Shown in pieces: positions 1-51,683 of a stretch of 64,000 nucleotides of DNA (within the stretch, counting starts at the first letter, position 1; every line of letters begins with the position of its first letter). The position numbers were made by a program, and so were the translations under genes. The stretch comes from a virus: UHGV virus genome UHGV-0240017. One strand, given 5' to 3'. The notes beneath the pieces are model-generated. The model worked only from the letters and a program-made list of their open reading frames with translations. It was not told the DNA's origin and made no database searches.

Positions 1-1139
1 TGTTTCAGTGTATCCGGCTCCTCTGCCTGAGTATTGAAATATTGCAGTAGGCGCTCAGACATTTTACGGATGCGGAACACCTCATCGATCGTACGCTTCA
101 GCATTTCTTCCGGATCGTCAATATCGCGAATATCTTCGATACCATCGATTGCCTGGCGGGTGGCAGTATAAAATTCTTGAAGGTAAGTTTTGCTCGAGTC
201 CGTACTTACCATCGGGAACAATTTATACTCACTTTCGGTTTTCACCATCACGTCCGCTTCATCATAGACGCAATAATCGATGTCTTTATTATCGATGATT
301 TCGTCAACCTTTTCTGACCAATTGTGATGGCTAGAATACGGTGAATTTTTGATGCGTTCGTTAAGTTCTTTTGGCGTAAGAATGTTTTTCTTAATCTGTT
401 CTCTAAGTTCGTGATCTAAATAGTCTTCCACAATTTCTACCCGGAAATGATCGATGATAGGTTTATTGTAACGTTCGACAAGTTCTTCGATAGTTTTCTC
501 GTCGAGCTCACGCGGCTTGTTAGCTTCCACCATAGAGTGCGAAACAGTCGGTTGTGGCTGTGCCTGTTGCACGGGTTGTTGTGCAGGCTGTTGTGCAGGC
601 TGACCGAAGTTACCTTGCGGTTGCGCTGATTGCTTCTGTGCCGCTGTACGCGGATCGTAAGTTGACATTGGGATAGAACCCCCTTCTACCGCTGTTGCTG
701 GTCGTGGGCTACCGTGGCCACTGCCTGTAAAGCTAGACGCGGGCATCGCTAAGCTCGGCGAAGCGGGCATTGTTGGGCCAGCGAAAGAGCTCGAATGTCC
801 CATAAGCTGTTTAGCTTGTACCGCATACTGATTCGCCGTACGGAATTCCTGTTCCAGCTGGCTGTGAATACGCGGGTCCAATGGCTGCATACCACGCCCC
901 AGTAAGTCACTATACAGCGTCGATTTAAATGTTGCCAGAATCGCCGATGCAGTTTCGTTATCTGGAAGACGGTTGTATACAAACCACGTGGCGACGGTAA
1001 CGGCATTATCCATGTATTTGTCGTCATTCATTCCGGCAGCACGTGCTTGATTACAAAGGTATGATAAAAGTTCGTCGCGGCCACTAGAGATTGTGCTATA
1101 GATGTGGTTACGAATTGCGTCTTTATTGACAGTTGCCAT
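1..1139 (-). CDS. hypothetical protein, N-terminal ~379 codons only (gene runs past the window start); Gln/Pro/Ala/Ser-rich low-complexity middle
   Basis: ATG at 1139 with AGGAG 7 nt upstream; frame checked open at 1-120, 601-660 and 1000-1139; absent from ORF track because no in-window stop; track ORF 749..1027 is in another frame. Confidence 0.5.
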   Translation of the reverse strand, partial: MATVNKDAIRNHIYSTISSGRDELLSYLCNQARAAGMNDDKYMDNAVTVATWFVYNRLPDNETASAILATFKSTLYSDLLGRGMQPLDPRIHSQLEQEFRTANQYAVQAKQLMGHSSSFAGPTMPASPSLAMPASSFTGSGHGSPRPATAVEGGSIPMSTYDPRTAAQKQSAQPQGNFGQPAQQPAQQPVQQAQPQPTVSHSMVEANKPRELDEKTIEELVERYNKPIIDHFRVEIVEDYLDHELREQIKKNILTPKELNERIKNSPYSSHHNWSEKVDEIIDNKDIDYCVYDEADVMVKTESEYKLFPMVSTDSSKTYLQEFYTATRQAIDGIEDIRDIDDPEEMLKRTIDEVFRIRKMSERLLQYFNTQAEEPDTLK

Positions 1140-19246: not shown

Positions 19247-19293
19247 AAAAAAAAAGAAAAGAGAGAACCACCCCATTACAGGGTGGTTCTCTT
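19247..19293 (-). terminator. intrinsic terminator after acidic paralog A
   Basis: AAGAGAACCACCC-TGTAATG-GGGTGGTTCTCTT hairpin followed by T10 on the minus strand. Confidence 0.8.
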
Positions 19294-19309
19294 ACTAAAC
19301 AATCAGGGA

Positions 19310-20575
19310 TTATTTAGATTTTTCGTAAGCGCCGATACCGGCACTCAGGTAACCGTTCAGACCACCGGCCAGGTGTTTCTGAGTAGAAGCAATAACCTTC
19401 TCACCCAGAGACAGACCCTGGTTAACGCTGGTGATGAAACGACGGGCAGCACGTACACCTTCGGTCAGTTCCGGTTTTTCGTCGATCTTAACTTTATCGA
19501 CTTCTTTCAGGAGCTTATCGATATTATCTTCAAAGGTTTTACGCGCGCTTTCGACTTTACGATAATCCTGAACGTTTTTCTCAATCTGTTTACCCACTTC
19601 GTTGAAGAGGGCATTAATTTTGGCCAGTTCGCCAACAGACGGAGTTTTCACGCTAGTTTCAACGCTGTTTTCAGCTTCAACAAAGGTGGAGCTGAAGCCG
19701 CCTTCGTTGTCATACTCGGTTTTCACCGCCATGTTACCGAGCTTGAAGTTTTGGAGACTGTCTTGTTTGGACAGTTCGGTAAAGTCGGCTTTCAGTTTTT
19801 CAACTTTAACACCATTACCTTTGGTAACATCGGAAACCACTTCAGCAGCTTTAGCGGCCATGGCAGGCATCTTAGCGCTATAGAACGAGGAGACCTGGTT
19901 AAGGATACCTTTCAGTTTCGGAATATTATCGCCGACGAACTTGCCGTCGATAGACAGAGACTTGATAAAGCCACCAGAGATCTCATCTTTCTTCTGTTTG
20001 CCCAGCTTACGAATAACTTCATCGTATTTCTTAGCACGCGCCTGAATAGATTTACCCTGGTTGTGGAATTTCAGCCAGCGATCTTTCAGTTTGCGGCCTT
20101 GTTCTTTCAGCCAATCGAGAATACGGCCCAGGAAGGCTTTGATGTCTTCCCACAGGGATTCACGAGCAACCTGACGACGGTTACGAGAACCGTAGGATTC
20201 GTGAGCAACAGAAGAACGGTGTTCGAAGTTCCAACGAGAACGGATAGATTCCTGAGCAACGTCCAGCGCAGTCGCAGCGTCGTCCGGCATATCTTCTTCG
20301 GCGTCCATCGGTTCTTCACCGTCTTCGCCAGCACCTTCACCGTCAGCAGCAGCCTGAGCTTCATCCAGAACATCCAGCTGAGCGTCAGTTTCGTCGCCGT
20401 CTTCTGCCAGCAGTTCAGCGTCAGCGTCCAGAGCTTCGATCGGTTTGGTGTCATGCTCGATATCGGCCAGAGTGCCTTCTACGGATTCTGCTGGCAGTTC
20501 GATGCCGTCTGGAACTACAGTAGAAGTAGACTCCATAGACTCACGAGCAATTTTGTTTTTGTAGAAATTCGCCAT
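19310..20575 (-). CDS. highly expressed acidic protein, paralog A (N-terminal D/E-rich region, K-rich coiled-coil-like middle); possible head scaffold or internal virion protein
   Basis: ATG at 20575 with GAGGAAAAG SD; stop-free antisense strand (codon bias); same architecture as 20658..21929. Confidence 0.65.
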   Translation of the reverse strand: MANFYKNKIARESMESTSTVVPDGIELPAESVEGTLADIEHDTKPIEALDADAELLAEDGDETDAQLDVLDEAQAAADGEGAGEDGEEPMDAEEDMPDDAATALDVAQESIRSRWNFEHRSSVAHESYGSRNRRQVARESLWEDIKAFLGRILDWLKEQGRKLKDRWLKFHNQGKSIQARAKKYDEVIRKLGKQKKDEISGGFIKSLSIDGKFVGDNIPKLKGILNQVSSFYSAKMPAMAAKAAEVVSDVTKGNGVKVEKLKADFTELSKQDSLQNFKLGNMAVKTEYDNEGGFSSTFVEAENSVETSVKTPSVGELAKINALFNEVGKQIEKNVQDYRKVESARKTFEDNIDKLLKEVDKVKIDEKPELTEGVRAARRFITSVNQGLSLGEKVIASTQKHLAGGLNGYLSAGIGAYEKSK

Positions 20576-20657
20576 TTTAAGCTTTTCCTCTAAGGGGAAC
20601 AATACGTTCCCCTGATGATTTATTTCAAGAACTGTACGGAACTACGAATCTAAATGA

Positions 20658-21929
20658 TTATTTAGATTTTTCGTAAGCACCGATACCAGCACCCAGGTAG
20701 CCATTCAGACCGCTAATAACGGTGTTAGCAACATAGCTAACTGCGCGGTTCAGGGTCTGGTAGTTCTTAACAGACCAATCGGCAGCTTGACGTGCGTTAC
20801 GCAGGCCATCCCACTTGCTATCGTCTTTTTCGTTGTTCAGCGCCTTAGCAGCATTCTCAGCAGCCTGTTGCAGCTTCACGATTTCAGAATCGTAAGCACG
20901 GAAATCTTTCAGTACGGCTTCGAAGCCTTTACCGATTGCTTCCAGAGCAGAAGCAGCACCAGCCATTTCAGAAACAGACGGAGTTTTCACGTCTTTATCG
21001 TCAGAAGCGTCACCGGTGCTCATGAAAGCAATTGCGGTGAACTTGTGGCCGCCAGCCAGTTCTTTAGTACCAGCCTGAATGTATGCGTTGCCTGGCAGTG
21101 CCAGCAGTTTAGACGCATCGCCTTTTTCAAAATTCGGCAGAGAATGCAGTTTAGACGCTGCTTTACCGAACAGGTCTACAGGCTGATCGCCGCGCATTGC
21201 TTTGAAGGAATCGTCGTCACCCTTGCTCACAGCAGTTACAGCTTCACCGGCCTGTTTTTCCAGAGCACTGATGGAACCTTTAGCTTTACCAGCAGTAACT
21301 TCTTTCGCAATAGCGATAGAGCCAGCAGCATCGAATTTACCTTCGATAGACAGCTTGGTGATAAACCCGCCAGAGATTTCATCTTTCTTCTGTTTGCCCA
21401 GCTTACGCAGCATTTCCTGATATTTCTTCGCACGTTTCTGCGCGGTCTTACCGACGTTGAAATATTTCAGTTTCAGGTCTTTGATCTTCGCAATCACTTC
21501 TTTACAGAACTGAATGAAACGATCGTAAAGATCTTTCAGGGTTTCTTTCCAACCTTCCTGGGCAGCAGCAGTCATACCACGGCCACGACGATAGGATTCG
21601 CGAGCCAGTTTAGTACGTTCCAGGCACCAACGACGTGCGATGGATTCCTGTGCCACTTCGTGCAGGGCAACCGCTTCTTCCGGCATTTCTTCACCGTTAG
21701 CAACGGCTTCTTCCGCCTGTTCGATAGCGTCTTCAGTACGCTCGGTATCGGCAGCCAGGGTTTCACCGTCGGTTTCCAGCTGATCGAGCTGACCGTCGAT
21801 AGATGCTACGTCCGCAAGTTGGACGTCCAGGTTCTCTTCTGCCGGTTCAACGTTGCTGATACCGTCGATTACTTCATCGGCCGCTTCCATCGATTCACGA
21901 GCGGCGCGAGTTTTTGCGAAATTTGCCAT
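20658..21929 (-). CDS. highly expressed acidic protein, paralog B
   Basis: Starts MANFAKTRAARESME versus MANFYKNKIARESME in paralog A; shares KKYxEx(I/L)RKLGKQKKDEISGGFI and C-terminal GLNGYLxAGIGAYEKSK; stop-free antisense strand. Confidence 0.7.
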   Translation of the reverse strand: MANFAKTRAARESMEAADEVIDGISNVEPAEENLDVQLADVASIDGQLDQLETDGETLAADTERTEDAIEQAEEAVANGEEMPEEAVALHEVAQESIARRWCLERTKLARESYRRGRGMTAAAQEGWKETLKDLYDRFIQFCKEVIAKIKDLKLKYFNVGKTAQKRAKKYQEMLRKLGKQKKDEISGGFITKLSIEGKFDAAGSIAIAKEVTAGKAKGSISALEKQAGEAVTAVSKGDDDSFKAMRGDQPVDLFGKAASKLHSLPNFEKGDASKLLALPGNAYIQAGTKELAGGHKFTAIAFMSTGDASDDKDVKTPSVSEMAGAASALEAIGKGFEAVLKDFRAYDSEIVKLQQAAENAAKALNNEKDDSKWDGLRNARQAADWSVKNYQTLNRAVSYVANTVISGLNGYLGAGIGAYEKSK

Positions 21930-21944
21930 TTCGTTTATTTCCTT

Positions 21945-21956
21945 TGGTTATATAAC
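21945..21956 (-). promoter_or_regulatory. GGTTATATAACC palindrome, possible promoter variant for acidic paralog B
   Basis: TATATAACC resembles TATATTACC; about 20 nt upstream of the 21929 ATG. Confidence 0.3.
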
Positions 21957-21988
21957 CCAATTACACGCCCCTAGAATGAGGGGCCCCC

Positions 21989-42094: not shown

Positions 42095-44194
42095 TTACTC
42101 AATGATAGTCGCGGCCACCGTATTGTCGTATAACGACGCCGGACGTTTACGCGACGTGTAGAAACGCACGTTGTCCAGGTTTTTCTGTTGGCCTTCGAAT
42201 AACAACATCGGTACCGCTGAACGCATCGCAATCAACGTATTGTGATCCTCGAAACGTTTGCCATCCATCGCATCAGCATCTTCACTATCAAACCCAACCG
42301 CCGGGAAAGGATTGGTCGGTGATTCAACGCGTGATATCGCCAGCATAATCGCGATGTGTGTCATCGGAATACCACCGAGCTTACGTTGGATATATTTAAA
42401 CACATCAAATAACGCGTGCGTACATTGTTTCTCCGTAGCACCACGCATCTGAACCAGAGTCGTTGGTTTTACCTTACCTGACTTCTTGCTCAAACGCATT
42501 GAGTCATCAGAGAACTGTTCGAAAGTATCCGATTTATCAGACGCAACCGAACGAAGTTTCAATTCTAACCCTGCTACAAACTCCGCCATAGATTCAGACC
42601 GATTCGTATAAATTAGTATCGGCCAACTCGGTTTCCATCCTTTCAGGGGAATCCGTACCAGCTTCTTCGACGGGAAGGTAATGTTATCGCGCTGTTTCAG
42701 GAAGAAATGCAAGAAGGCTTTCGAGAAGTTACCACAAACCCCCATACGGACGTCAATGGGATCTTCAGCCAACACATTCCCAGCTTCATCCAACCGCAAA
42801 AAGGTCAGTTCGTTAATCTCCGGCAATGCCGTTTCGTCAATCACTTCCAAATCGTCGTGATACGCGATTTGGCTGATTTCAGAATAGACTTCATCAGAAA
42901 TAACGAGTTGGTATTCATCCCAATTACCGTACTGTGGTTTCTCCCGTAAACTCAACCCTTTTACGGAGTTGTGTTTATACTCCCCAAGATAATCCCGCAT
43001 TCTTGGGGTCAGCACCAGATTCAGCAGATAGCGTAAGAAGTCCAGGTGTTTCGTTGAGAGAATCCCCTGCGTACCCTTTTCAGATATCGAGGTTGAAGCC
43101 AAGTGACCTGGGGACGTTCCCGGCGAAAGGTTATAAATCAAATCACCCATGCACGTTGCACAAATGCTTTGACGTGCCATCCCCTTACAACACATCGCAC
43201 TACGAAACTCAATAGGTTTGCCTAAGACTTTCTCAAACTCCCCTTTCTCGAAACGTAGCCACGGACCCCCCACACCTTCAAAACGATAACGCATTCCCAC
43301 CATCGCATCGTACTTCTTACGCTCCAGTTTACTTTCTGTAAACGTGTGACGGTGAACATGATGCGTACCACAATCGTCGTATTCGAAATACATTAACACG
43401 TTAGCTGCTAACTGTAGCTTACGTGACGCATATTCCGCATCGGCGATTTTATCGGTGTTATACAGGTGAGAACGTGACGTTGCACCTGCTTCTTTCAGAC
43501 GGCTAATTACAGAATGTAGGCCCGTGAAGAAACCTTCCCATACCTGGTTAGAATAAACACGAGAATCAATCTCTGATGTTTTCCCGCGTATATACGCCTG
43601 AAGAACCTGGTTCATTTTGATGGTCTTATCCAAGACCGACATCACCACAGGGTTTAAACGAAGTTGTGGGTCTTTGAAGATATCTTCGATAAGAAGATAC
43701 GCTTCCTCAACCATATCCCGACCTTCTTCGTCGTATCCAGTAGGATACATTTGTGCCCACTGATGAATCTGCGTAAAATTTCGGTGTTGGTAAATTTCCA
43801 TCATCGTATCGTAGTCAATCGTGACGCAATACGACAACAGATTTTTCACCGATAAGTTAAACGCATCCGCATAGACGTGCTGCTGCAATAAATAGCGGGT
43901 ATCTGCTAAATCCACACCCGCTTTACGTGCTGCCACAGCTGCCAATGACATAAACTTCAGATGTGCGTCATCTGTAGCAGTGTCGCCATGTTTATACGCC
44001 ATTTGCGAACTGATTGGGATCTGCGGATAAAATCGTGTTAGCCCCCAATAAGGCCAACTGATTTTAATGTGGCGTCCTGACATGTTTAAGGTTATTCCGT
44101 CATCGAACGTCACTTCATATCTGCCGCGCAATAGCCACACCTGATCCGAGTTCAGTTTACACAGATCACGCACGTGAACTGGAGTGCCCTTCAT
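42095..44194 (-). CDS. putative RNA polymerase subunit (beta-prime-like fragment, speculative), coupled to the beta-like gene
   Basis: Start overlaps stop of the beta gene (rpoB-rpoC-like order); internal CCKGMARQSICATCMG resembles the beta-prime zinc finger, otherwise divergent. Confidence 0.4.
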   Translation of the reverse strand: MKGTPVHVRDLCKLNSDQVWLLRGRYEVTFDDGITLNMSGRHIKISWPYWGLTRFYPQIPISSQMAYKHGDTATDDAHLKFMSLAAVAARKAGVDLADTRYLLQQHVYADAFNLSVKNLLSYCVTIDYDTMMEIYQHRNFTQIHQWAQMYPTGYDEEGRDMVEEAYLLIEDIFKDPQLRLNPVVMSVLDKTIKMNQVLQAYIRGKTSEIDSRVYSNQVWEGFFTGLHSVISRLKEAGATSRSHLYNTDKIADAEYASRKLQLAANVLMYFEYDDCGTHHVHRHTFTESKLERKKYDAMVGMRYRFEGVGGPWLRFEKGEFEKVLGKPIEFRSAMCCKGMARQSICATCMGDLIYNLSPGTSPGHLASTSISEKGTQGILSTKHLDFLRYLLNLVLTPRMRDYLGEYKHNSVKGLSLREKPQYGNWDEYQLVISDEVYSEISQIAYHDDLEVIDETALPEINELTFLRLDEAGNVLAEDPIDVRMGVCGNFSKAFLHFFLKQRDNITFPSKKLVRIPLKGWKPSWPILIYTNRSESMAEFVAGLELKLRSVASDKSDTFEQFSDDSMRLSKKSGKVKPTTLVQMRGATEKQCTHALFDVFKYIQRKLGGIPMTHIAIMLAISRVESPTNPFPAVGFDSEDADAMDGKRFEDHNTLIAMRSAVPMLLFEGQQKNLDNVRFYTSRKRPASLYDNTVAATIIE

Positions 44195-46431
44195 TATTCA
44201 TCGCCCCTTTTCATTTTCACCAATTCAAACCCTTCACAGCTGTGGATGTTTTTCATCATCCTGTCAATCTGCGAATCCCCTAACGGGAATTTATTCCGGT
44301 CTACCAGTGGACCTGGATTAGACGGGGTTTGAGATCGATAAAGCCCTACTAAAATCTCACGATGCACCGCAGGGTTATTTGCCCTGTCGTGAACTTCTTC
44401 GTAGTTACCTGGACCATAACCCGCTAACAGTCGTTCTTCCGAAGGACCAGCCCATTTTAGCGTTTTATAGTTTATCGGATACGAACCACGTCCTTGGTTA
44501 GACGCGTCTATCGTACCCAGATAATTCAGATACATTGACGAGATACTGGAAAACTCACGACCTGTTTTATCCAGACGTAATGTCTCCACACCACCTACGT
44601 AAAACTCATTTTTTGTCCATTCCTGTTTACCATCGAAATTAGTAATCAGGAGTTTGGATTTACGCGGTTTAAATTCACCCAACCGTTCACTAATATCGAC
44701 TGGTGTGTCGTCAAGTTCATGTGGTAAGTAAATACGGATTGTAAAATCGTAAATCTCTTTGAAAAGTTCGCGTTGTAAATCCTCCGTAGGATGTGTTACC
44801 TGTAGTGTGTTGGCCCATTCAGGATTAAAGCGTGACAGATAATCCATCAGAATTTCCCAACACTCACTGATACGACCTTCGTCCAGCATCGGTTTAAGAC
44901 GCATCTTCAACTGCTCAGACGCAGCTGACCAATACATGTGGAATAATGCTGCATAAGTCGAGCGACGAATTACAGCGTTCATCGAACGTAAAACGTGAAC
45001 ACGTTCACCGAATTCGTTAATCGGCATCTGTTCAACGGGTAATACACGACCAACAATCCCTTTCGTGCCCGAGCGGTCGGTAATCTTAGACGACACCGTT
45101 ACCGGGATCGGATAACGAACAGCAATACGAATGGTATACGTGTTGATGGGATCGCTGAGTCCGCGTTGTACTGGCGAGGTCAACTTAGAAAGAATCTGCT
45201 GACTGACATTTTCTTTACCGTATTCACCACGACGAATTGCTTCATCAATCACCACGCGTATCTCTTCACGAAACTCGTGATAGACCTCGTACGTTTCAGA
45301 AGCGAACGCTTTTTCCAACAACACACACGCTTTCGGCGACCAGATAATATTTTTGTCACGGGACATCGAGAAATAGAATCGTACGATGGCATTGTAATAG
45401 TCTTTCAATGCTAACGCGTATTTATCCAGCTCTCGTTTGTTCTCTTCGGTACAAGAAATATTGTTAGCACCATTCGCACAAGACGTTTCATCACGCCACA
45501 CCTGGATATCGACGATACGTGTACCGCTACGTTCCATCAGTTCTTTGTCACCTGCAAGACGTGCTTTATAGTGAACGGGATCGGCATCCACATATTCGCA
45601 GCTATCGAAGAACGGAGAGACGTGTTGGGTTTCCCCAAGCGACGCATCAATTGCACCGTAAAGCTCATCGAAACGACGCGATGCAATGACCAACCCATCG
45701 TCACGAATAGCCTCTCCTACATCCGGGAAATACCGTGGGACGCGATTACCGTTCGGATCGATATAACCGTAAGTATCCAGTAAAAACTCGTCTTCACGTA
45801 GCGTCTTTTCAACGATTTTCAAACCATAACCGTGGAGTTTTTGGGCGGCGTACTCAGAGATGGTGTAGGAATCCTCGATGATATCAGGATGCGAAATCGT
45901 AACGGTTGGTAGCACGACGCTATCGGCGTACTCGCCTTCCACCATACACGACATCGTTGTAAGGATTTCATCCTTTTCCAACTGATCGGTTTCGCCACGT
46001 AAAATACTACGCAGTTTCATCGACTCACGTTTCTCAGATGAGAAGATGTTGTCGTGGTTAGTATAGAAATTAATCTCCAGCACATCTATCATGGTTTTAC
46101 CGCCCTTCATTTCTGCACGGCGGAAGAAGATAGCATGTTCCAACGCTTTAGAATCCCCACGACGTCCATAACGTGTAAACGTCGCGCGGCGCTGACGACC
46201 GTCTTTGGTCATATAGTGGCAGATGCTACCGGGATCTTCTACAACGTCATTGAACAGAAAATCGTGGTAGTTTATATCAGCCCCTGTAAAATGTGGCGAT
46301 GGTTCAGGATTGTCGATAGGGACCGCAGACTTCATATGGTTGCCTACCATCGATGCCCTTGCACCTGATACTTCGGTGATATTAATCTCACGGTCAGCCA
46401 CACTGCTCATTAGCTCTACTGGCGTTTTCAT
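44194..46431 (-). CDS. RNA polymerase beta subunit homologue, C-terminal half
   Basis: DRSGTKGIVGRVLPVEQMP...VHVL..NAVIRR matches GDKMAGRHGNKGV...PVEDMP...VDIVLNP.GVPSR; GTRIVDIQVWRDE matches GTVIDVQVFTRD; LNYLGTIDASNQGRGSY matches LNHLVDDKMHARSTGSY. Confidence 0.7.
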   Translation of the reverse strand: MKTPVELMSSVADREINITEVSGARASMVGNHMKSAVPIDNPEPSPHFTGADINYHDFLFNDVVEDPGSICHYMTKDGRQRRATFTRYGRRGDSKALEHAIFFRRAEMKGGKTMIDVLEINFYTNHDNIFSSEKRESMKLRSILRGETDQLEKDEILTTMSCMVEGEYADSVVLPTVTISHPDIIEDSYTISEYAAQKLHGYGLKIVEKTLREDEFLLDTYGYIDPNGNRVPRYFPDVGEAIRDDGLVIASRRFDELYGAIDASLGETQHVSPFFDSCEYVDADPVHYKARLAGDKELMERSGTRIVDIQVWRDETSCANGANNISCTEENKRELDKYALALKDYYNAIVRFYFSMSRDKNIIWSPKACVLLEKAFASETYEVYHEFREEIRVVIDEAIRRGEYGKENVSQQILSKLTSPVQRGLSDPINTYTIRIAVRYPIPVTVSSKITDRSGTKGIVGRVLPVEQMPINEFGERVHVLRSMNAVIRRSTYAALFHMYWSAASEQLKMRLKPMLDEGRISECWEILMDYLSRFNPEWANTLQVTHPTEDLQRELFKEIYDFTIRIYLPHELDDTPVDISERLGEFKPRKSKLLITNFDGKQEWTKNEFYVGGVETLRLDKTGREFSSISSMYLNYLGTIDASNQGRGSYPINYKTLKWAGPSEERLLAGYGPGNYEEVHDRANNPAVHREILVGLYRSQTPSNPGPLVDRNKFPLGDSQIDRMMKNIHSCEGFELVKMKRGDE

Positions 46432-46494: not shown

Positions 46495-46818
46495 ATGTTA
46501 GACAATTTTATTACCCTAGAAGAATTCATACCTGCGCCTTACACCACGACATGGAAAGTGATGCACGATTACACAGACTATCTGCGTAAACACCCGAAAA
46601 CTAAAATAGAAAATGTTGACCCACGCTACAGTTGGCCTGAGGTCCACAATTTCTACGCCTACTGTAAACTCAAAGGTTACGCCGATATCATTATCTATCC
46701 GATGATGCTATTAAACGGGCTAGAAGACCCCATGAATTTCACCCCTGAAATCACGCAACTAATCGTACCCGACGTCGGAACGGTTAGTGAGATTATTAGC
46801 ACCATCGGTAATGATTAA
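46495..46818 (+). CDS. hypothetical protein (107 aa)
   Basis: ATG; terminator hairpin 46823-46841 immediately downstream. Confidence 0.6.
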   Translation: MLDNFITLEEFIPAPYTTTWKVMHDYTDYLRKHPKTKIENVDPRYSWPEVHNFYAYCKLKGYADIIIYPMMLLNGLEDPMNFTPEITQLIVPDVGTVSEIISTIGND

Positions 46819-46855: not shown

Positions 46856-48211
46856 TTAACGCGTAAATGCCGAAGTTGCAAATCCACCGAAACTGCTGTT
46901 CGTTGCAAATGCTGAACTCGTGCTAAACGCGCTAGTCCCACCGACATCCCCGCTGAAAGAATTATTCCCTCCACCAAAGGTACTTGCCAAAGAACCTCCG
47001 GTATTCCCTACACCAAAAATACTCTGACCACCGAAAGGTGACACCTTGCGCTCACCACCAAACGCATCCACAACAGAAATTCGACTTACCATACCGTTGG
47101 CAGGGCTAGTTGTTCCGTGTTGCTCAGCGTAACGTTGCATCGCTGGCGTCAAATTCCCATAAGGACTTCGCGCGGCCATGTTACGTTCACGAGCACGGAA
47201 GAATTCCATCGGATCTGACTTATCCGCTTTATCCGCATCCGATGCACGTTTTTGTGGAATCTGCTGCGGAGCCTGCGCACGATCGATACGGAAATCATGC
47301 GCCGTGGTATCACGTTCAGGGCTGTCAGAACGTGGGCCGGTGTTATACGGTAAAGTCTGAATAACGTTATCGTAAATATCCATATTGTCCAGCTGAGAAA
47401 TCCATTCATCTTCCAACGGACGTAAAGATGTGTGGTCGCGCAATCCCTTAACGACATTATTGTAATTCACAACGTACTGCGCCCAGCCACGTGCTAAGCA
47501 ACCGAAATACGGACGCGAATCATTAGACCCCGTTACGCTCGGATACCAACCGAACACGGTGGTCAGTAAACGGTGGATAATGATTTTGTCTTGTTTACGT
47601 TGAAGCTTCGCAGAGAAGTACATTGCAGTACCATCTAACGATTCTTCTTCGAACATATTCCGATAATTAGCTACGCGGTTAAACTTCACGCCGTCGATAA
47701 CTAAATCAGATGCAATAAAAAGCTGGGTGATCTTGTGCTTTTTATCTTTTTCCAATTGTCCATAGACGAACGCTTTCACCGCTTCCCAGGATTTCACCAA
47801 ACGTTCGTCGAACGTCGGATCTTTCATCCCTTCGCAAATCTGTTCTGTTAAGAACTTCTTGTAGGATGCAGAACGTACTGCTTTACCACTTGCCCCCGTT
47901 TCCAGAATCGCGTCGATTAATGCAAAGGAGCGAATGAACAGGTTCGCATTAATGGATTTCTTCAGGAAACGAATTGTCCCTGATTCACCTGCCAGTACCG
48001 ATTCACACAGTGGATGAAATGCCTGACATTCGCGACCATCATCGTCTTCCATACCACGCTTAATCATCGCTGGGGTGGGAAGCGCCAAACGGCGCTTCAC
48101 TTTGTTATACGTAAACTCTGCCGGTTCACCACCGTCACGAGTGAGTAAATCGTTTTCAAAATCGAATCCTTGTGATTTAAGAAACGATTTGTAGAATTCA
48201 ATAATTTTCAT
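46856..48211 (-). CDS. hypothetical protein (451 aa) with Gly/Ser/Phe-rich disordered C-terminal tail
   Basis: ATG start; last ~65 aa FGGQSIFGVGNTGGSLASTFGGGNNSFSGD...SSFGGFATSAFTR. Confidence 0.7.
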   Translation of the reverse strand: MKIIEFYKSFLKSQGFDFENDLLTRDGGEPAEFTYNKVKRRLALPTPAMIKRGMEDDDGRECQAFHPLCESVLAGESGTIRFLKKSINANLFIRSFALIDAILETGASGKAVRSASYKKFLTEQICEGMKDPTFDERLVKSWEAVKAFVYGQLEKDKKHKITQLFIASDLVIDGVKFNRVANYRNMFEEESLDGTAMYFSAKLQRKQDKIIIHRLLTTVFGWYPSVTGSNDSRPYFGCLARGWAQYVVNYNNVVKGLRDHTSLRPLEDEWISQLDNMDIYDNVIQTLPYNTGPRSDSPERDTTAHDFRIDRAQAPQQIPQKRASDADKADKSDPMEFFRARERNMAARSPYGNLTPAMQRYAEQHGTTSPANGMVSRISVVDAFGGERKVSPFGGQSIFGVGNTGGSLASTFGGGNNSFSGDVGGTSAFSTSSAFATNSSFGGFATSAFTR

Positions 48212-48233
48212 TTAAGAGTCCTTGATTAATCTT

Positions 48234-49940
48234 TTACTCGCCGAATGCACCAAAGCCAGACACTGGCGCAGAGGTTGACATATCGCCACCACCAAAGCTA
48301 CCGAAGCTACCCAGGCTCGTAGGTGCAGACACAGGGGCAGTTGGGATATTCGACAGGATATTCGAACGGTTCTGACCACGGTTGAATTCTTGGTACCCTT
48401 CTTCCACTTTGTTCATCAGCTGCGCTGTTTCTGCAGCTAACTGGTTCGTGTACTGAAGGTCAGTCGTTGTACCACAATGCAGACGTGCTTTCATGAACGA
48501 CGCATGAGTATAATACTCAGGTAGCTCACCATCGATTTCGATTTCGATACGTGAAACCACACCAACGATACACGTTACGGTCATCTTACAACGAATACGG
48601 TTGTGTTTAGTCACTTGCAAGAATACGCCTTGTAAATCACTCAAGAAGCGACGTGCTAACACATCCGGTAATCCGTCTTCAGTTAATGCCCCAACGTTGT
48701 GTTTTGACACTTGCAGTAGAGGTGGTGTTGCAATATCCGCCATACGGTTATCGTAGAAGAAAGTCACTTCGCCGATAAGGTTACGAGTGACCACAGGCCC
48801 CAGTAACATGGCTAAATCAAATGCCACCAACGAACCCTGAGTAGAATAGTTATTACGTCCTACCCAATCATCGGTGCGTTCAATTTCACCAAAACCACGA
48901 CGAGCCGCGACAGCCAGTGAGTGCGCAATTGCAGCATCCACATCTTCGGGATTAATCACCGCGTTACGCAAGTCGCACAGTTTGAATGCTGCACGGTTCG
49001 CAACGTTCCAACCGCTAGTCATATCGGACGTAGCGTTGGACATGGCTGTTCTAAAAGCCTTCACCAACTCGTAACTGTTGAAATTACGCATCACACCAAT
49101 CTGGCTAAGTTCAGATTCTACCCCAAGAGAATGATCTCCTGCGAAGAAGCTGTCTACTGCGCTCAACTCCGTTTCAATCCCCATGGTGTTAATAAAGGAA
49201 TTGGAGATCGCCGTCACGAAAGATTCTGGTCTGGTTAATTGACTAGACATCAACTGTGGCGCACGCTGGCAATTAGCGGAGATAACGGTGTTGTTATCCA
49301 GCTCAATCTGCTCACCTGCTTTCACCACTTTACGCACCATATCAGCTGCTTTCGCGGTAGAAATAACGTCAATGGTGTGCTCTACATAGCTGTCTGCGGT
49401 TAATGTCTTAGACAGCACATAGTTGTCTATCAAGCGGAAGGAATCCGGGTTGATACGGCGTCCACCGAACGCATCGGTGATATACGTACATTGTAACCCG
49501 TATATTTCGTTGATATACAGAACCATGTCATCCGGCAGGTGATTAAACATGGATCGCTCTGCCTGGGACGTATACCCGGAAACAACATAACGTGTTTCTT
49601 GAGTCCGTGTGTCATTTAACGAGTTCGAAACAATAATCGCCACGAAGTTATACACACCAGTATCGCGAGAATTATACGCAAAATGGATTGGTTGCGATTC
49701 GTTATCACTCACGTTAATGAATGGACGTTCAATACCAGTTGGGGTATTGTCGAAACCCACAATCTGCCCCAAGGCTTCTTGATAAGCCCGAGAACCTGTT
49801 GCTTTATCACCATGTTCTGCAACCACATCCACTAACTCATCCAAAGCGTGCTGCGATTCAAAGAACCCAATGCGACGACGAATCTGCTCTGGGATTTCGT
49901 ACACTGGATACATTTGTAGTTTCAAAAGTTTCATTGCCAT
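48234..49940 (-). CDS. hypothetical protein (568 aa) with FG-rich C-terminal tail
   Basis: ATG with AAAGGAG SD; C terminus SLGSFGSFGGGDMSTSAPVSGFGAFGE. Confidence 0.7.
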   Translation of the reverse strand: MAMKLLKLQMYPVYEIPEQIRRRIGFFESQHALDELVDVVAEHGDKATGSRAYQEALGQIVGFDNTPTGIERPFINVSDNESQPIHFAYNSRDTGVYNFVAIIVSNSLNDTRTQETRYVVSGYTSQAERSMFNHLPDDMVLYINEIYGLQCTYITDAFGGRRINPDSFRLIDNYVLSKTLTADSYVEHTIDVISTAKAADMVRKVVKAGEQIELDNNTVISANCQRAPQLMSSQLTRPESFVTAISNSFINTMGIETELSAVDSFFAGDHSLGVESELSQIGVMRNFNSYELVKAFRTAMSNATSDMTSGWNVANRAAFKLCDLRNAVINPEDVDAAIAHSLAVAARRGFGEIERTDDWVGRNNYSTQGSLVAFDLAMLLGPVVTRNLIGEVTFFYDNRMADIATPPLLQVSKHNVGALTEDGLPDVLARRFLSDLQGVFLQVTKHNRIRCKMTVTCIVGVVSRIEIEIDGELPEYYTHASFMKARLHCGTTTDLQYTNQLAAETAQLMNKVEEGYQEFNRGQNRSNILSNIPTAPVSAPTSLGSFGSFGGGDMSTSAPVSGFGAFGE

Positions 49941-49970: not shown

Positions 49971-51683
49971 TTATTGATTAAACCATGCTACTTCTTCGCA
50001 TTTCTTTCTGTTTTGAATTAACAGAAATTCTGCTAACATGTTCTGAAGTCGCGGATGAGGTGAATAGTCCAACATCACTGTCCCACACCGTAACATTCTG
50101 GCTGCTTCCGGTGTTGCCCTGAGATTGAAGTTGAACGGCGCAATATGTTCACGAACCAACAAGCTGAGAGAATCCTTCAATGTTGATTGTTCGTAAGTAT
50201 TACGATGTTTACGGTATGCTTGTGGATAATATCTATCCGTTTTTATTTTAATCTCATTATCGATAGGCTCGATGGGATACCCGCCATTTAGTGGTGCCCG
50301 GATCATTTCACAACTTAACAACTGTGCAATCTCAGGCATTCCGTAATAGATGTAAACGGCTTGGGATATACCCATCGCATTCTTAAACGCTTCTGCGTCG
50401 ATTTCCTTGTATGTACGACGATCTGCAAATCGGTGCATCACTGCCGCCACCAACCATTCGTAGAGTTCGTAGAACGGATACTGATGGTTAATGTTGATAG
50501 AATCTATCAGCACTTTCACATCTGCGGGAGCAATATCGAGATTCAAAGCACGCACCGCACGACGATAGTCATTAAAGAATTCTTGAGTACGAACGAATTC
50601 CTTCATTGGTGCTTTAGTCCGAGCTTGAACCAAGTCAATCGACGAAGTTTTCCCCTTCTCGCCATTGAACATGATTTTCTCAGGATTCGCTTTTAGCATC
50701 ACGTTTTGGCCGGAAATTTTTCCCGCGAAGCCCGTTTCGATTTCTTGTCGAATATTGAAATACATCCCCGCCACGATGTTGTTTTCAACCATCGTACCTG
50801 GCGGTAGTTCGGCACCGATTAACTTCATTGCAATTAAACGGATAACGGCGAACGCTATGATGTATTCCTCTACCATATCCGTACCGTAGCCACAGATAGA
50901 TGCCAGGACGGTAAGGTTTGCAGTATTAGGTCCTTTACTCCCCCCGTCCTGAACTTTCGAAATCACCGACACTAAAAACTCACGCAACTTTGTAATGGCT
51001 GGCAGTGTAGCAATCTCGGTATCAGACAACAACTCCATGCAGTAGGTCAGGTTATAAACACTTTTGCGCTTCGACTCAACAGAAGCACGTGTTGCAGGAA
51101 AAGCGTCCAAAATCAAGAATACGGGAATAAACGGTTTTGTCATCAAAGACAAAATCACCAATTCGTAATAATCTTGTACGATATACGTCATCTCTTTTGG
51201 ATAATTCGACGACATCTCTTCGTACGTTTCGTGGACGTTTTGAGGAATCCACACCGAACCGTGTGGATAAAGCTGGCGGAATCTATCTGCGTGGTGAAAT
51301 TTAGCAATTCTCGCGACGAGCGTGGGGACGTGTTCACGAATAACTTCTGGGGGCTCATTAGCTAACAACTCTAATTCTTCGTAAACTGAAAACAGTTCGC
51401 TTTTCTCTTCAGGCGTTAAAGTTGACCAATAACGCTCGATTTCCATGAACATGATTTTATCGTGCGTTACGATCTGTCCGAAACTATCGCGTACGTCTGG
51501 CACATTCACGTCTTTACGTCCATTTCGGAAACCATTAAACGCGACCTCTTTTTCGCCGTACTTTATCACTAAACGGTCACGATTCTTTTCAATGCGCATT
51601 TTAAAATCTCCAGGAATAACATAGTCGTCCACTAAGATAAAATCTATCTCAGATAACTTCGACTGTATTCTACACACATACAC
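49971..51683 (-). CDS. hypothetical protein (570 aa)
   Basis: Long ORF; start probably GTG; terminator hairpin 51692-51711 upstream of next gene. Confidence 0.65.
   Translation of the reverse strand: MYVCRIQSKLSEIDFILVDDYVIPGDFKMRIEKNRDRLVIKYGEKEVAFNGFRNGRKDVNVPDVRDSFGQIVTHDKIMFMEIERYWSTLTPEEKSELFSVYEELELLANEPPEVIREHVPTLVARIAKFHHADRFRQLYPHGSVWIPQNVHETYEEMSSNYPKEMTYIVQDYYELVILSLMTKPFIPVFLILDAFPATRASVESKRKSVYNLTYCMELLSDTEIATLPAITKLREFLVSVISKVQDGGSKGPNTANLTVLASICGYGTDMVEEYIIAFAVIRLIAMKLIGAELPPGTMVENNIVAGMYFNIRQEIETGFAGKISGQNVMLKANPEKIMFNGEKGKTSSIDLVQARTKAPMKEFVRTQEFFNDYRRAVRALNLDIAPADVKVLIDSININHQYPFYELYEWLVAAVMHRFADRRTYKEIDAEAFKNAMGISQAVYIYYGMPEIAQLLSCEMIRAPLNGGYPIEPIDNEIKIKTDRYYPQAYRKHRNTYEQSTLKDSLSLLVREHIAPFNFNLRATPEAARMLRCGTVMLDYSPHPRLQNMLAEFLLIQNRKKCEEVAWFNQ

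Follow-up and report, generated by a model that had tools for sequence, protein, structure and literature searches.

A lineage-specific hydrophobic-glycine motif appears to be shared by the disordered tails of PicA, a gp70-like protein, chimallin and a gp78-family protein in nucleus-forming jumbo phages

The window analysed here is the whole of a 64,000-nucleotide stretch of UHGV virus genome UHGV-0240017, which comes from an SPN3US/phiEaH2-like chimallivirus, a nucleus-forming jumbo phage. Two adjacent minus-strand genes in the window encode proteins of 451 and 568 amino acids (aa), and both end, at the positions given in the original prediction, in uncharged tails rich in Gly, Ser, Phe, Thr and Ala that contain phenylalanine-glycine (FG) dipeptides (Table 1). 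The 568-aa protein is almost certainly PicA/Imp1 and the 451-aa protein, with the same confidence, a member of the phiKZ gp70/PhiPA3 gp64 family. Judged from their sequences in relatives of the phage, the tails follow a lineage-specific code of a hydrophobic residue plus Gly, which changes in parallel in PicA, in the gp70-like protein, in the terminal tails of chimallin (ChmA) and in a fourth protein of the gp78 family. Protein passage across the shell is the central unsolved problem of phage-nucleus biology, and PicA/Imp1 is the only core import factor known; reviews from 2025-26 still count a pore, a flippase and an unfoldase among the candidate routes. A co-evolving motif common to these four proteins is apparently not described in the literature that we found. 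Papers on import, on the interaction network and reviews say nothing about a disordered tail on either PicA or gp70, and we found none that joins 'FG repeat' or 'phenylalanine-glycine' to 'phage nucleus'.

The identity of the two proteins is established by family membership and gene order. The 568-aa protein matches phrog_3141 with E=1.9e-127 over residues 1-536, and PhiPA3 gp63, which is PicA, matches the same PHROG with E=4.2e-170. Direct BLASTP between the two proteins gives a weak, colinear alignment (E=0.014). The gene is syntenic with SPN3US gp31, PhiPA3 gp63 and phiKZ gp69, lying between the gp68 and gp70 families in a chimallin-encoding genome, and its product shares with the known PicA/Imp1 proteins (phiKZ gp69, PhiPA3 gp63 and Goslar gp174) the PHROG, the length class, the neighbourhood and the absence of detectable fold relatives. 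The 451-aa protein matches phrog_3520 with E=2.4e-123, as does PhiPA3 gp64 (E=1.8e-133). BLASTP against the phiKZ gp70/PhiPA3 gp64 family aligns the N-terminal 300 aa, within which lies the invariant 'FHPLCES' region, at E=2e-18, and the family has 34 invariant positions among 39 homologues. Like phiKZ gp70, PhiPA3 gp64 and 201phi2-1 gp126, the window protein is encoded right after PicA and has a long low-complexity C-terminal region. In the deposited proteins of Salmonella phages SPFM5-20 (P0044-P0048 and P0084-P0087), we observe what resemble reordered blocks of SPN3US gp31 and gp32, with short identical segments in a different order, which suggests that the SPFM records for these two genes are assembly or annotation artefacts.

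Both families have been studied in other phages. PicA/Imp1 is a core gene of the Chimalliviridae and an essential import factor that decides which proteins enter the nucleus; in experiments with phiKZ, PhiPA3 and Goslar it forms a punctum on the shell, and the determinants of its import selectivity lie on folded surfaces, both in PicA and in the cargo. Work on PhiPA3 describes gp63 and gp64 as early, abundant proteins of the shell that are missing from virion proteomes and come down together with the shell hub ChmB. The link to the phage nucleus suggested in the original prediction is thus borne out, in that both window proteins are orthologues of proteins reported at the nuclear shell.

AlphaFold2 models built from 34-39 homologues separate folded domains from tails. 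In PicA, residues 1-531 are confidently folded (predicted template modelling score 0.77), and the predicted local distance difference test (pLDDT) falls below 50 for residues 532-568. In the gp70-like protein, residues 1-289 are confidently folded, and pLDDT is below 50 for residues 290-330 and 385-451; the proximal linker includes a partly conserved 'S(L/V)xxAxGG' segment. The disorder prediction that had been proposed as a check therefore agrees with the expectation for both tails. The tail sequences quoted in the original prediction are real but were swapped: the one that reads ...SLGSFGSFGGGDMSTSAPVSGFGAFGE ends the 568-aa protein, and the one that reads ...SPFGGQSIFGVGNTGG...SSFGGFATSAFTR ends the 451-aa protein, whose C-terminal end is ...ERKVSPFGGQSIFGVGNTGGSLASTFGGGNNSFSGDVGGTSAFSTSSAFATNSSFGGFATSAFTR. 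The PicA tail (37 aa) consists of 22% Gly, 19% Ser and 11% Phe with two charged residues. All four of its Phe residues are followed by Gly, a degree of FG adjacency above that expected from composition (shuffle P=0.012), and a 9-bp tandem unit at 48291-48311 encodes SFG-SFG. The distal tail of the gp70-like protein (65 aa) consists of 22% Gly, 20% Ser, 14% Phe and 11% Thr with five charged residues; its nine Phe residues are spaced 3-13 residues apart, each between small residues (Gly, Ser, Ala or Thr), and there are five FG or GF dipeptides.

The density of FG or GF per 100 aa is 13.5 in the PicA tail and 7.7 in the gp70-like tail, compared with 0.73 in the folded parts, an enrichment of 10-18 times. 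The window has 105 open reading frames (ORFs) of 80 aa or more; of the real genes among them, these two and the gene for the 615-aa protein discussed below are the densest in FG. Two further FG-dense ORFs, 19283-20593 and 20787-21974 on the plus strand, were rejected as antisense shadows of real minus-strand genes. The genes beneath them are adjacent paralogues at 19310-20602 and 20658-21929 (minus strand; 430 and 423 aa) with acidic N-terminal regions, common N-termini ('MANF.K...ARESME') and common C-termini ('GLNGYL.AGIGAYEKSK'). By position they correspond to CR5 genes annotated as internal head proteins, and their antisense strand yields long F-rich shadow ORFs.

The tails evolve rapidly. 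In an IMG/VR relative (L003, from 13473) that is 100% identical to the window in PicA and gp68, the gp70-like tail has an 8-aa insertion, 'GQPQSSFG', and a few substitutions, making the protein 459 rather than 451 aa long. An insertion or deletion of this kind between near-identical genomes suggests that the tails evolve by gain and loss of repeat units.

The 615-aa protein is probably a diverged chimallin, judged by its conserved gene position and by its PHROG, which is that of SPN3US_0022. Alignment with PhiPA3 ChmA by hhalign is weak and colinear (E=0.005, probability 7%); the Pfam model Chimallin_Phikzvirus did not match the protein, and a phmmer search of the PDB returned nothing. Precomputed Pfam tables list chimallin for the homologues in metagenomic loci L031 (306-2108) and L036, a result that our own hmmscan of L031 did not reproduce. 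A diverged chimallin of SPN3US, at 10% identity, was described by Laughlin et al. (2022), who also showed that the N-terminal segment (NTS) and two C-terminal segments (CTS1 and CTS2) of chimallin dock onto neighbouring protomers and thereby build the shell. Chimallins of the SPN3US type are easily missed by automated annotation.

The chimallin segments are extended terminal peptides with hydrophobic anchors, and the chimallin tails in the window carry the same SFGG/AFG motifs as the tails of PicA and the gp70-like protein. The FGG-containing start of the 615-aa protein that had been pointed out earlier is there, as 'PSFGGAG' and 'NAFGGM' within the first 50 residues. At the same positions, sister phages of the L-type have 'APLGGLG' (SPN3US) and 'APLGGNA...SSLGNVG' (phiEaH2). 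The C-terminus, near which 'SAFGSDFGMSF' lies, reads SAFGSDFGMSFAAT in the window and SDFGLGVSLSNFKL in relatives. In the CR5 clade, the second clade of the F-type, the chimallin has 'GFSVG' and SAFDFAQQSGYFSM.

To compare tails across the group, we collected ChmA, ChmC, PicA and gp70 from 12 annotated genomes, 6 IMG/VR loci, 7 Logan/JGI contigs, phiKZ and 201phi2-1. In every gp70 homologue surveyed the C-terminal region, about 100-150 aa long, is of low complexity, and its chemistry differs between lineages: FG/SF in the window clade; NPF repeats in CR5, Derbicus and Phobos; SLFG/GLFG in L031 (...NNSLFGTSNNGGLFGSSGGGGSLFGNTGSNNLF); LG/LLGG in SPN3US, phiEaH2 and Kwan; GNSLL(D/G) and RLGGLGG in Caitlin and Machina; Met/Gln/Pro-rich in PhiPA3, phiKZ and RAY; and Arg/Asp-rich in a Vibrio phage. 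The window tail, being FG/SF-rich, thus differs from the Met/Gln/Pro-rich tails of the Pseudomonas phages in which the protein was localised. The PicA tail is Gly-rich with repeated Phe or Leu and 25-55 aa long in the window and in the SPN3US-like group; PhiPA3 and phiKZ have a short one, and Goslar and RAY none. Within one genome the PicA and gp70 tails share a motif: 'GNSIL' in Caitlin, 'GGSLL' in L032, and 'SFGG' or 'FGGG' in the window. The difference between Phe and Leu is visible in all of these proteins in two F-rich groups, the window and the CR5-like phages, which probably arose independently from an L-type background. In some genomes the likeness extends to the last four residues, which are the same or nearly so: SFNF in ChmA and PicA of L032, GFTW in ChmA and gp70 of L037, and TFNY in PicA versus SFNY in gp70 of L035. 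In PhiPA3, PicA and gp70 both end in LGLL and ChmA in GFY; the 201phi2-1 pair ends in LGLL and MGLI.

The tail of ChmC/Imp6, encoded two genes upstream, provides a comparison. Here too a shell-associated protein ends in a disordered, Gly-rich tail, but this one is G/N/Y/Q-rich with an acidic end, keeps its type across lineages and lies outside the Phe/Leu code.

The parallel change was quantified as the fraction of 3- or 4-residue words that two tails from one genome have in common, set against pairings in which the genomes were permuted, using one representative per clade. For PicA versus gp70, p=5e-5 (3-mer) and 1e-4 (4-mer) with 14 representatives, and p=0.0017 and 0.0007 with 11 deep-clade representatives; these and the following p values come from a permutation that treats clade representatives as exchangeable although phylogeny links them, and as few as three to five switches may underlie the signal, a point to be counted against the interpretation below. 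The ChmA C-tail shares words with gp70 (13 representatives; p=0.0013 for 3-mers and 0.005 for 4-mers), and the ChmA N-tail with PicA (11 representatives; p=0.003 and 0.011). The share of Phe among hydrophobic residues gives a similar picture for chimallin and PicA (rho 0.86, p=9e-5 for the ChmA C-tail and rho 0.71 for the ChmA N-tail, each against the PicA tail); between the PicA and gp70 tails this correlation is weak (rho 0.24).

Two trivial sources of the likeness were considered and rejected. Genome-wide compositional bias is excluded by the Phe share of the folded domains, which is flat at 0.10-0.22 in every genome. Gene conversion between tails was assessed from the longest common DNA words, which at 7-10 nt equal those of codon-shuffled controls; since the DNAs that encode the tails have no similarity beyond chance, the likeness does not stem from recent gene conversion. 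That the motif co-varies among the nucleus proteins of one phage favours a specific function in interaction over inert linkers.

A fourth protein came from an out-of-sample test, in which the complete genome of CR5, an F-type phage, was searched for low-complexity windows that lack charge and contain Phe. Apart from the gp70-like protein and PicA, this search picked out CR5_074, two weaker ORFs in the tail-fibre region and one antisense shadow. CR5_074 (514 aa, phrog_8185) has an internal stretch in which 'NPF', the motif of the gp70 tail in CR5, occurs five times. Its family, that of SPN3US gp78, is present in 62 of 62 SPN3US-like records, and the N-terminal part of the member in the window lies at the very start of the sequence. 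The corresponding stretch reads GGLGGSGGLGGGSNAGGLLGG in SPN3US, where the region also includes GGLGGSGGLGGG..GGLLGG, 'GGGLGGGGIGG' in phiEaH2, SGGLLGGGNTGTSILG in Kwan and GGLRLGGLGGNGISGG in Caitlin, the gp70 tail of which has 'QRLGGLGGLGG'. The motif type expected from the gp70 tail was met in the gp78 family of all six further lineages, including Phe in the window. Between the gp78 stretch and the gp70 tail, the Phe share correlates with rho 0.91, and word sharing has an exact p of 0.0002-0.0008 (0.0014-0.0056 without CR5). SPN3US gp78 is an essential, non-virion protein that is needed for late protein production; its loss blocks the production of many proteins.

We suggest that the tail motifs are co-evolving short linear motifs that tether shell proteins or make them cohere. 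In each disordered tail a short linear motif, a single hydrophobic residue among Gly, Ser, Asn and Thr, would occur several times, with the residue set by lineage: Phe in the window, NPF in CR5-like phages, and Leu or Leu-Leu in SPN3US-like and Caitlin-like phages. Common to PicA, the gp70-like protein, the N- and C-tails of chimallin and the internal stretch of the gp78 family, these motifs may act as a multivalent, low-affinity 'velcro' at the nuclear shell. They could dock into the hydrophobic sites of the chimallin lattice that chimallin's own tails use, stick to one another and to the chimallin N-tails, or both. Such contacts would gather PicA, gp70 and gp78 on the shell, most likely where import or export takes place. 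The motif would change together in all partners because all must stay compatible. In Laughlin et al. (2022) the docking peptides sit on chimallin itself, whereas here they would sit on proteins other than chimallin. The identical terminal tetrapeptides of L032 and L037 favour mimicry of the docking peptides; the lack of such identity in the window and in the Pseudomonas phages indicates that mimicry is not the whole story. Such a motif would tie three orphan proteins to the shell in a concrete and cheaply testable hypothesis, and a motif code could help to explain why related phages exclude each other's nuclear proteins. As a whole we hold this mechanism tentatively, at somewhat less than an even chance.

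Several observations weigh against it. The mechanism rests on co-variation between sequences. In the window, the extreme C-termini of ChmA, PicA and gp70 differ, and in the Pseudomonas phages the ChmA C-termini (...GFY and ...TWY) are unlike the ending shared by PicA and gp70, so that mimicry of CTS2 is not general. General CTS2 mimicry by extreme C-termini was also rejected by BLOSUM scoring of the last five residues, in which pairs from the same genome were compared with pairs from other genomes (p=0.17-0.36). FG adjacency in the gp70-like tail is no higher than its composition predicts (shuffle P=0.34), and this tail is accordingly better described as 'small-F-small' repeats than as strict FG repeats. 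Since PicA functions in Goslar and RAY with no tail, the tail is not essential to the core import mechanism. In pull-downs from E. coli, phiKZ Imp1 bound Imp6/ChmC directly and did not pull down gp70. Lastly, phiKZ gene 070 is not among the listed hits of antisense oligonucleotide knock-down, whereas 065-069 are.

We considered whether the tails might instead form a selective phase similar to that of nucleoporins. In such a model, the tails of PicA, gp70 and gp78 together with thousands of chimallin N-tails would make up a cohesive, disordered meshwork that serves as a permeability barrier at or in an opening of the shell, with cargo or PicA partitioning into it, a convergence with FG domains. 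The resemblance to nucleoporins noted in the original prediction, here set above all against the cohesive GLFG/SLFG domains of the Nup98 type, holds for composition: the tails are predicted to be disordered, are nearly uncharged, and repeat Phe or Leu flanked by Gly or Ser among spacers of Asn, Ser, Thr, Gly and Gln, in a setting of selective import. It does not extend to homology. Neither protein matched a Pfam family at E<=0.01, and PDB sequence searches (single-sequence and profile) and fold searches gave no match for either. The gp70 tail of L031 is made of GLFG/SLFG units, the motif types of Nup98, and engineered Nup98-like repeats with Leu in place of Phe still form selective phases, with client specificity that depends on motif identity (Ng et al., 2023). 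This dependence parallels the lineage code of Phe, Leu and Met and the reported species-specific import of phiKZ versus PhiPA3. PicA forms a single punctum, and the disordered N/G-rich tail of the neighbouring ChmC/Imp6 drives RNA-protein condensates.

The differences from a nuclear pore are substantial. The tails in the window are 37 and 65 aa long with 4 and 9 Phe, whereas FG domains run to hundreds of residues with motifs numbering in the tens; the tails are 10-20 times shorter, with spacers of 3-14 aa, and the hydrophobic residue is Leu in most relatives. No pore has been seen in the chimallin lattice, and no pore scaffold or transport receptors are known. The mapping of import selectivity to folded surfaces and the tailless PicA of Goslar and RAY also argue against a selective phase, and the Arg/Asp-rich gp70 tail of the Vibrio phage and the Met/Gln/Pro-rich tails of the Pseudomonas phages indicate that a phase of hydrophobic residues and Gly is not universal. 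We consider this model unlikely. The broader proposal, that nucleus-forming phages evolved, independently of eukaryotes, a 'hydrophobic-Gly' meshwork of PicA, gp70, gp78 and chimallin tails as a selective gate, with the motif (F, L, NPF or M) as a lineage code that would help to exclude proteins of foreign phages or of the host, appears similarly improbable. If the tails did form a cohesive selective phase, the convergence with the nuclear pore would be striking.

Another possibility is that the tails recognise one common partner other than chimallin, such as a ChmB-like hub, the PhuZ cytoskeleton, or a host chaperone or protease, with a pocket that varies by lineage or host. Co-purification of PhiPA3 gp63 and gp64 with ChmB would fit such a partner, as would the LGLL ending of both and the LGLL and MGLI endings of the 201phi2-1 pair, with chimallin ending otherwise in these phages, and the finding that word sharing is strongest for PicA-gp70 and gp78-gp70 and weaker with chimallin. 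However, homologues of ChmB are found only in Pseudomonas phages, the chimallin tails shift between Phe and Leu in step in both F-type clades, and no candidate partner was identified in the window. We regard a shared third partner as quite unlikely.

Equally doubtful, in our estimate, is that the tails are inert flexible spacers, entropic linkers or bristles whose exact sequence is immaterial, with replication slippage creating the repeats and a shared mutational or codon bias creating the likeness. The fast evolution of the tails agrees with this explanation, as seen in the 8-aa insertion and in the 9-bp tandem repeat, and so do their widely varying composition across the family and the unexceptional FG adjacency of the gp70 tail. 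It does not account for the flat use of Phe in folded domains across lineages or for the lack of DNA similarity between the tails. Moreover, the same motif type occurs in four unlinked regions of the genome and was correctly predicted for the fourth protein in six lineages, and a tail of at least 100 aa is retained on every gp70 homologue examined.

The remaining alternative, raised in the original prediction as flexible linkers of virion proteins and here taken as proteins of the virion or inner body that lose their tails to the head maturation protease, is scarcely credible: although giant phages of this group process many head proteins, and the prohead protease of phiKZ reportedly cuts chimallin itself, the orthologues are reported to be early, at the shell and absent from virion mass spectrometry, both genes lie in the early block of the phage's non-virion RNA polymerase (nvRNAP) and chimallin rather than among structural genes, and the SPN3US virion-protein paper never mentions gp31 or gp32 and classes their neighbours gp29 (ChmC, which is essential) and gp78 as non-virion.

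Table 1. Positions of the four proteins, their tails and the neighbouring genes in the window.
Feature	Position	Strand	Basis and remarks
gp78-family protein, N-terminal 379 aa	1..1139	-	phrog_8185 via CR5_074; ATG at 1139; gene runs past the window start
Internal disordered stretch of the gp78-family protein, residues 114-196	552..800	-	translation; 'SSSFAGP', 'ASSFTGSG', 'GNFGQP'
nvRNAP beta-like (44194-46431) and beta'-like (42095-44194) proteins	42095..46431	-	Pfam Rpb2_6, Rpb1_5; phrog_3295, phrog_3015; close the conserved block
phiKZ gp70/PhiPA3 gp64 orthologue, 451 aa	46856..48211	-	phrog_3520
Distal tail of the gp70-like protein, disordered and FG/SF-rich, residues 387-451	46859..47053	-	pLDDT <50 for 385-451
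Proximal linker of the gp70-like protein, residues 290-386	47054..47344	-	pLDDT 33-67; predicted short helices 334-343 and 356-365
PicA/Imp1 orthologue, 568 aa	48234..49940	-	phrog_3141, synteny
Disordered FG tail of PicA, residues 532-568, IPTAPVSAPTSLGSFGSFGGGDMSTSAPVSGFGAFGE	48237..48347	-	pLDDT <50, composition
phiKZ gp68 orthologue, fifth (sigma-like) nvRNAP subunit, 570 aa	49971..51683	-	phrog_3209, shared with PhiPA3 gp62
ChmC/Imp6 orthologue, 214 aa	51733..52377	-	phrog_3284, shared with PhiPA3 gp61; G/N/Y-rich tail, acidic end 'NDFDDII'
Probable diverged chimallin (ChmA), major nuclear-shell protein, 615 aa	58169..60016	-	phrog_8316 (family of SPN3US_0022); conserved position upstream of nvRNAP beta' N-terminal fragment
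ChmA C-terminal tail, residues 595-615, PSAFGSDFGMSFAATDWRPTY	58172..58234	-	alignment; by position, linker and CTS2
ChmA N-terminal tail, residues 1-53, 'PSFGGAG...NAFGGM'	59858..60016	-	alignment; upstream of conserved NTS-like 'FDKAFGY'

Megablast of the region against 50,697 phage records gave no relative at the nucleotide level. At the protein level, identity is 62-72% to phiEaH2 and 56-64% to SPN3US, and near-identical contigs of about 225 kb are present in IMG/VR. Four consecutive minus-strand genes of the window match PHROGs 3284, 3209, 3141 and 3520 (E 5e-51 to 3e-154), as do PhiPA3 gp61, gp62, gp63 and gp64, respectively. The order SbcD - x - ChmC - gp68 - PicA - gp70 - small opposite-strand gene - nvRNAP beta - beta' is identical in all 13 reference phages (SPN3US, phiEaH2, Caitlin, CR5, Kwan, Machina, Phobos, PhiPA3, Goslar, RAY, a Vibrio phage, phiKZ and 201phi2-1). 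Chimallin lies about 8-10 kb upstream of this block in the reference phages, and the block of the window about 8 kb downstream of chimallin.

The gp68-family protein has an ordinary C-terminus with no low-complexity tail. Its called start is a GTG, and homologues and the alignment consensus begin with 'M(K/R)IEK' at residue 29; translation therefore probably starts at the ATG near 51599, giving a protein of about 542 aa. The small opposite-strand gene of the window, between the gp70-like gene and nvRNAP beta, is a 107-aa ORF at 46495-46818 (plus strand). A gene of 105-121 aa occupies the same spot on the opposite strand in SPN3US (gp33), phiEaH2, Caitlin, CR5, Kwan, Machina, Phobos, Goslar (gp172), RAY (gp246), 201phi2-1 (gp127) and the Vibrio phage, and in every metagenomic locus that extends to that position. 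Beyond nvRNAP beta', the gene in the helicase position is about 910-921 aa long in L031 (17932-20664) and L036 (16164-18929), compared with the usual length of about 565 aa; the enlarged gene has a LAGLIDADG match, probably an intein or homing-endonuclease insertion, which does not occur in the window. In the ChmC orthologue, 'PTNDFDDII' comes after the G/N/Y-rich stretch and closes the protein with an acidic, aromatic tip that recalls the C-terminal tips of bacterial single-stranded DNA-binding proteins and is kept in type in all lineages ('FDDII', 'YDEFL', 'FDEYL' and 'YDEMF').

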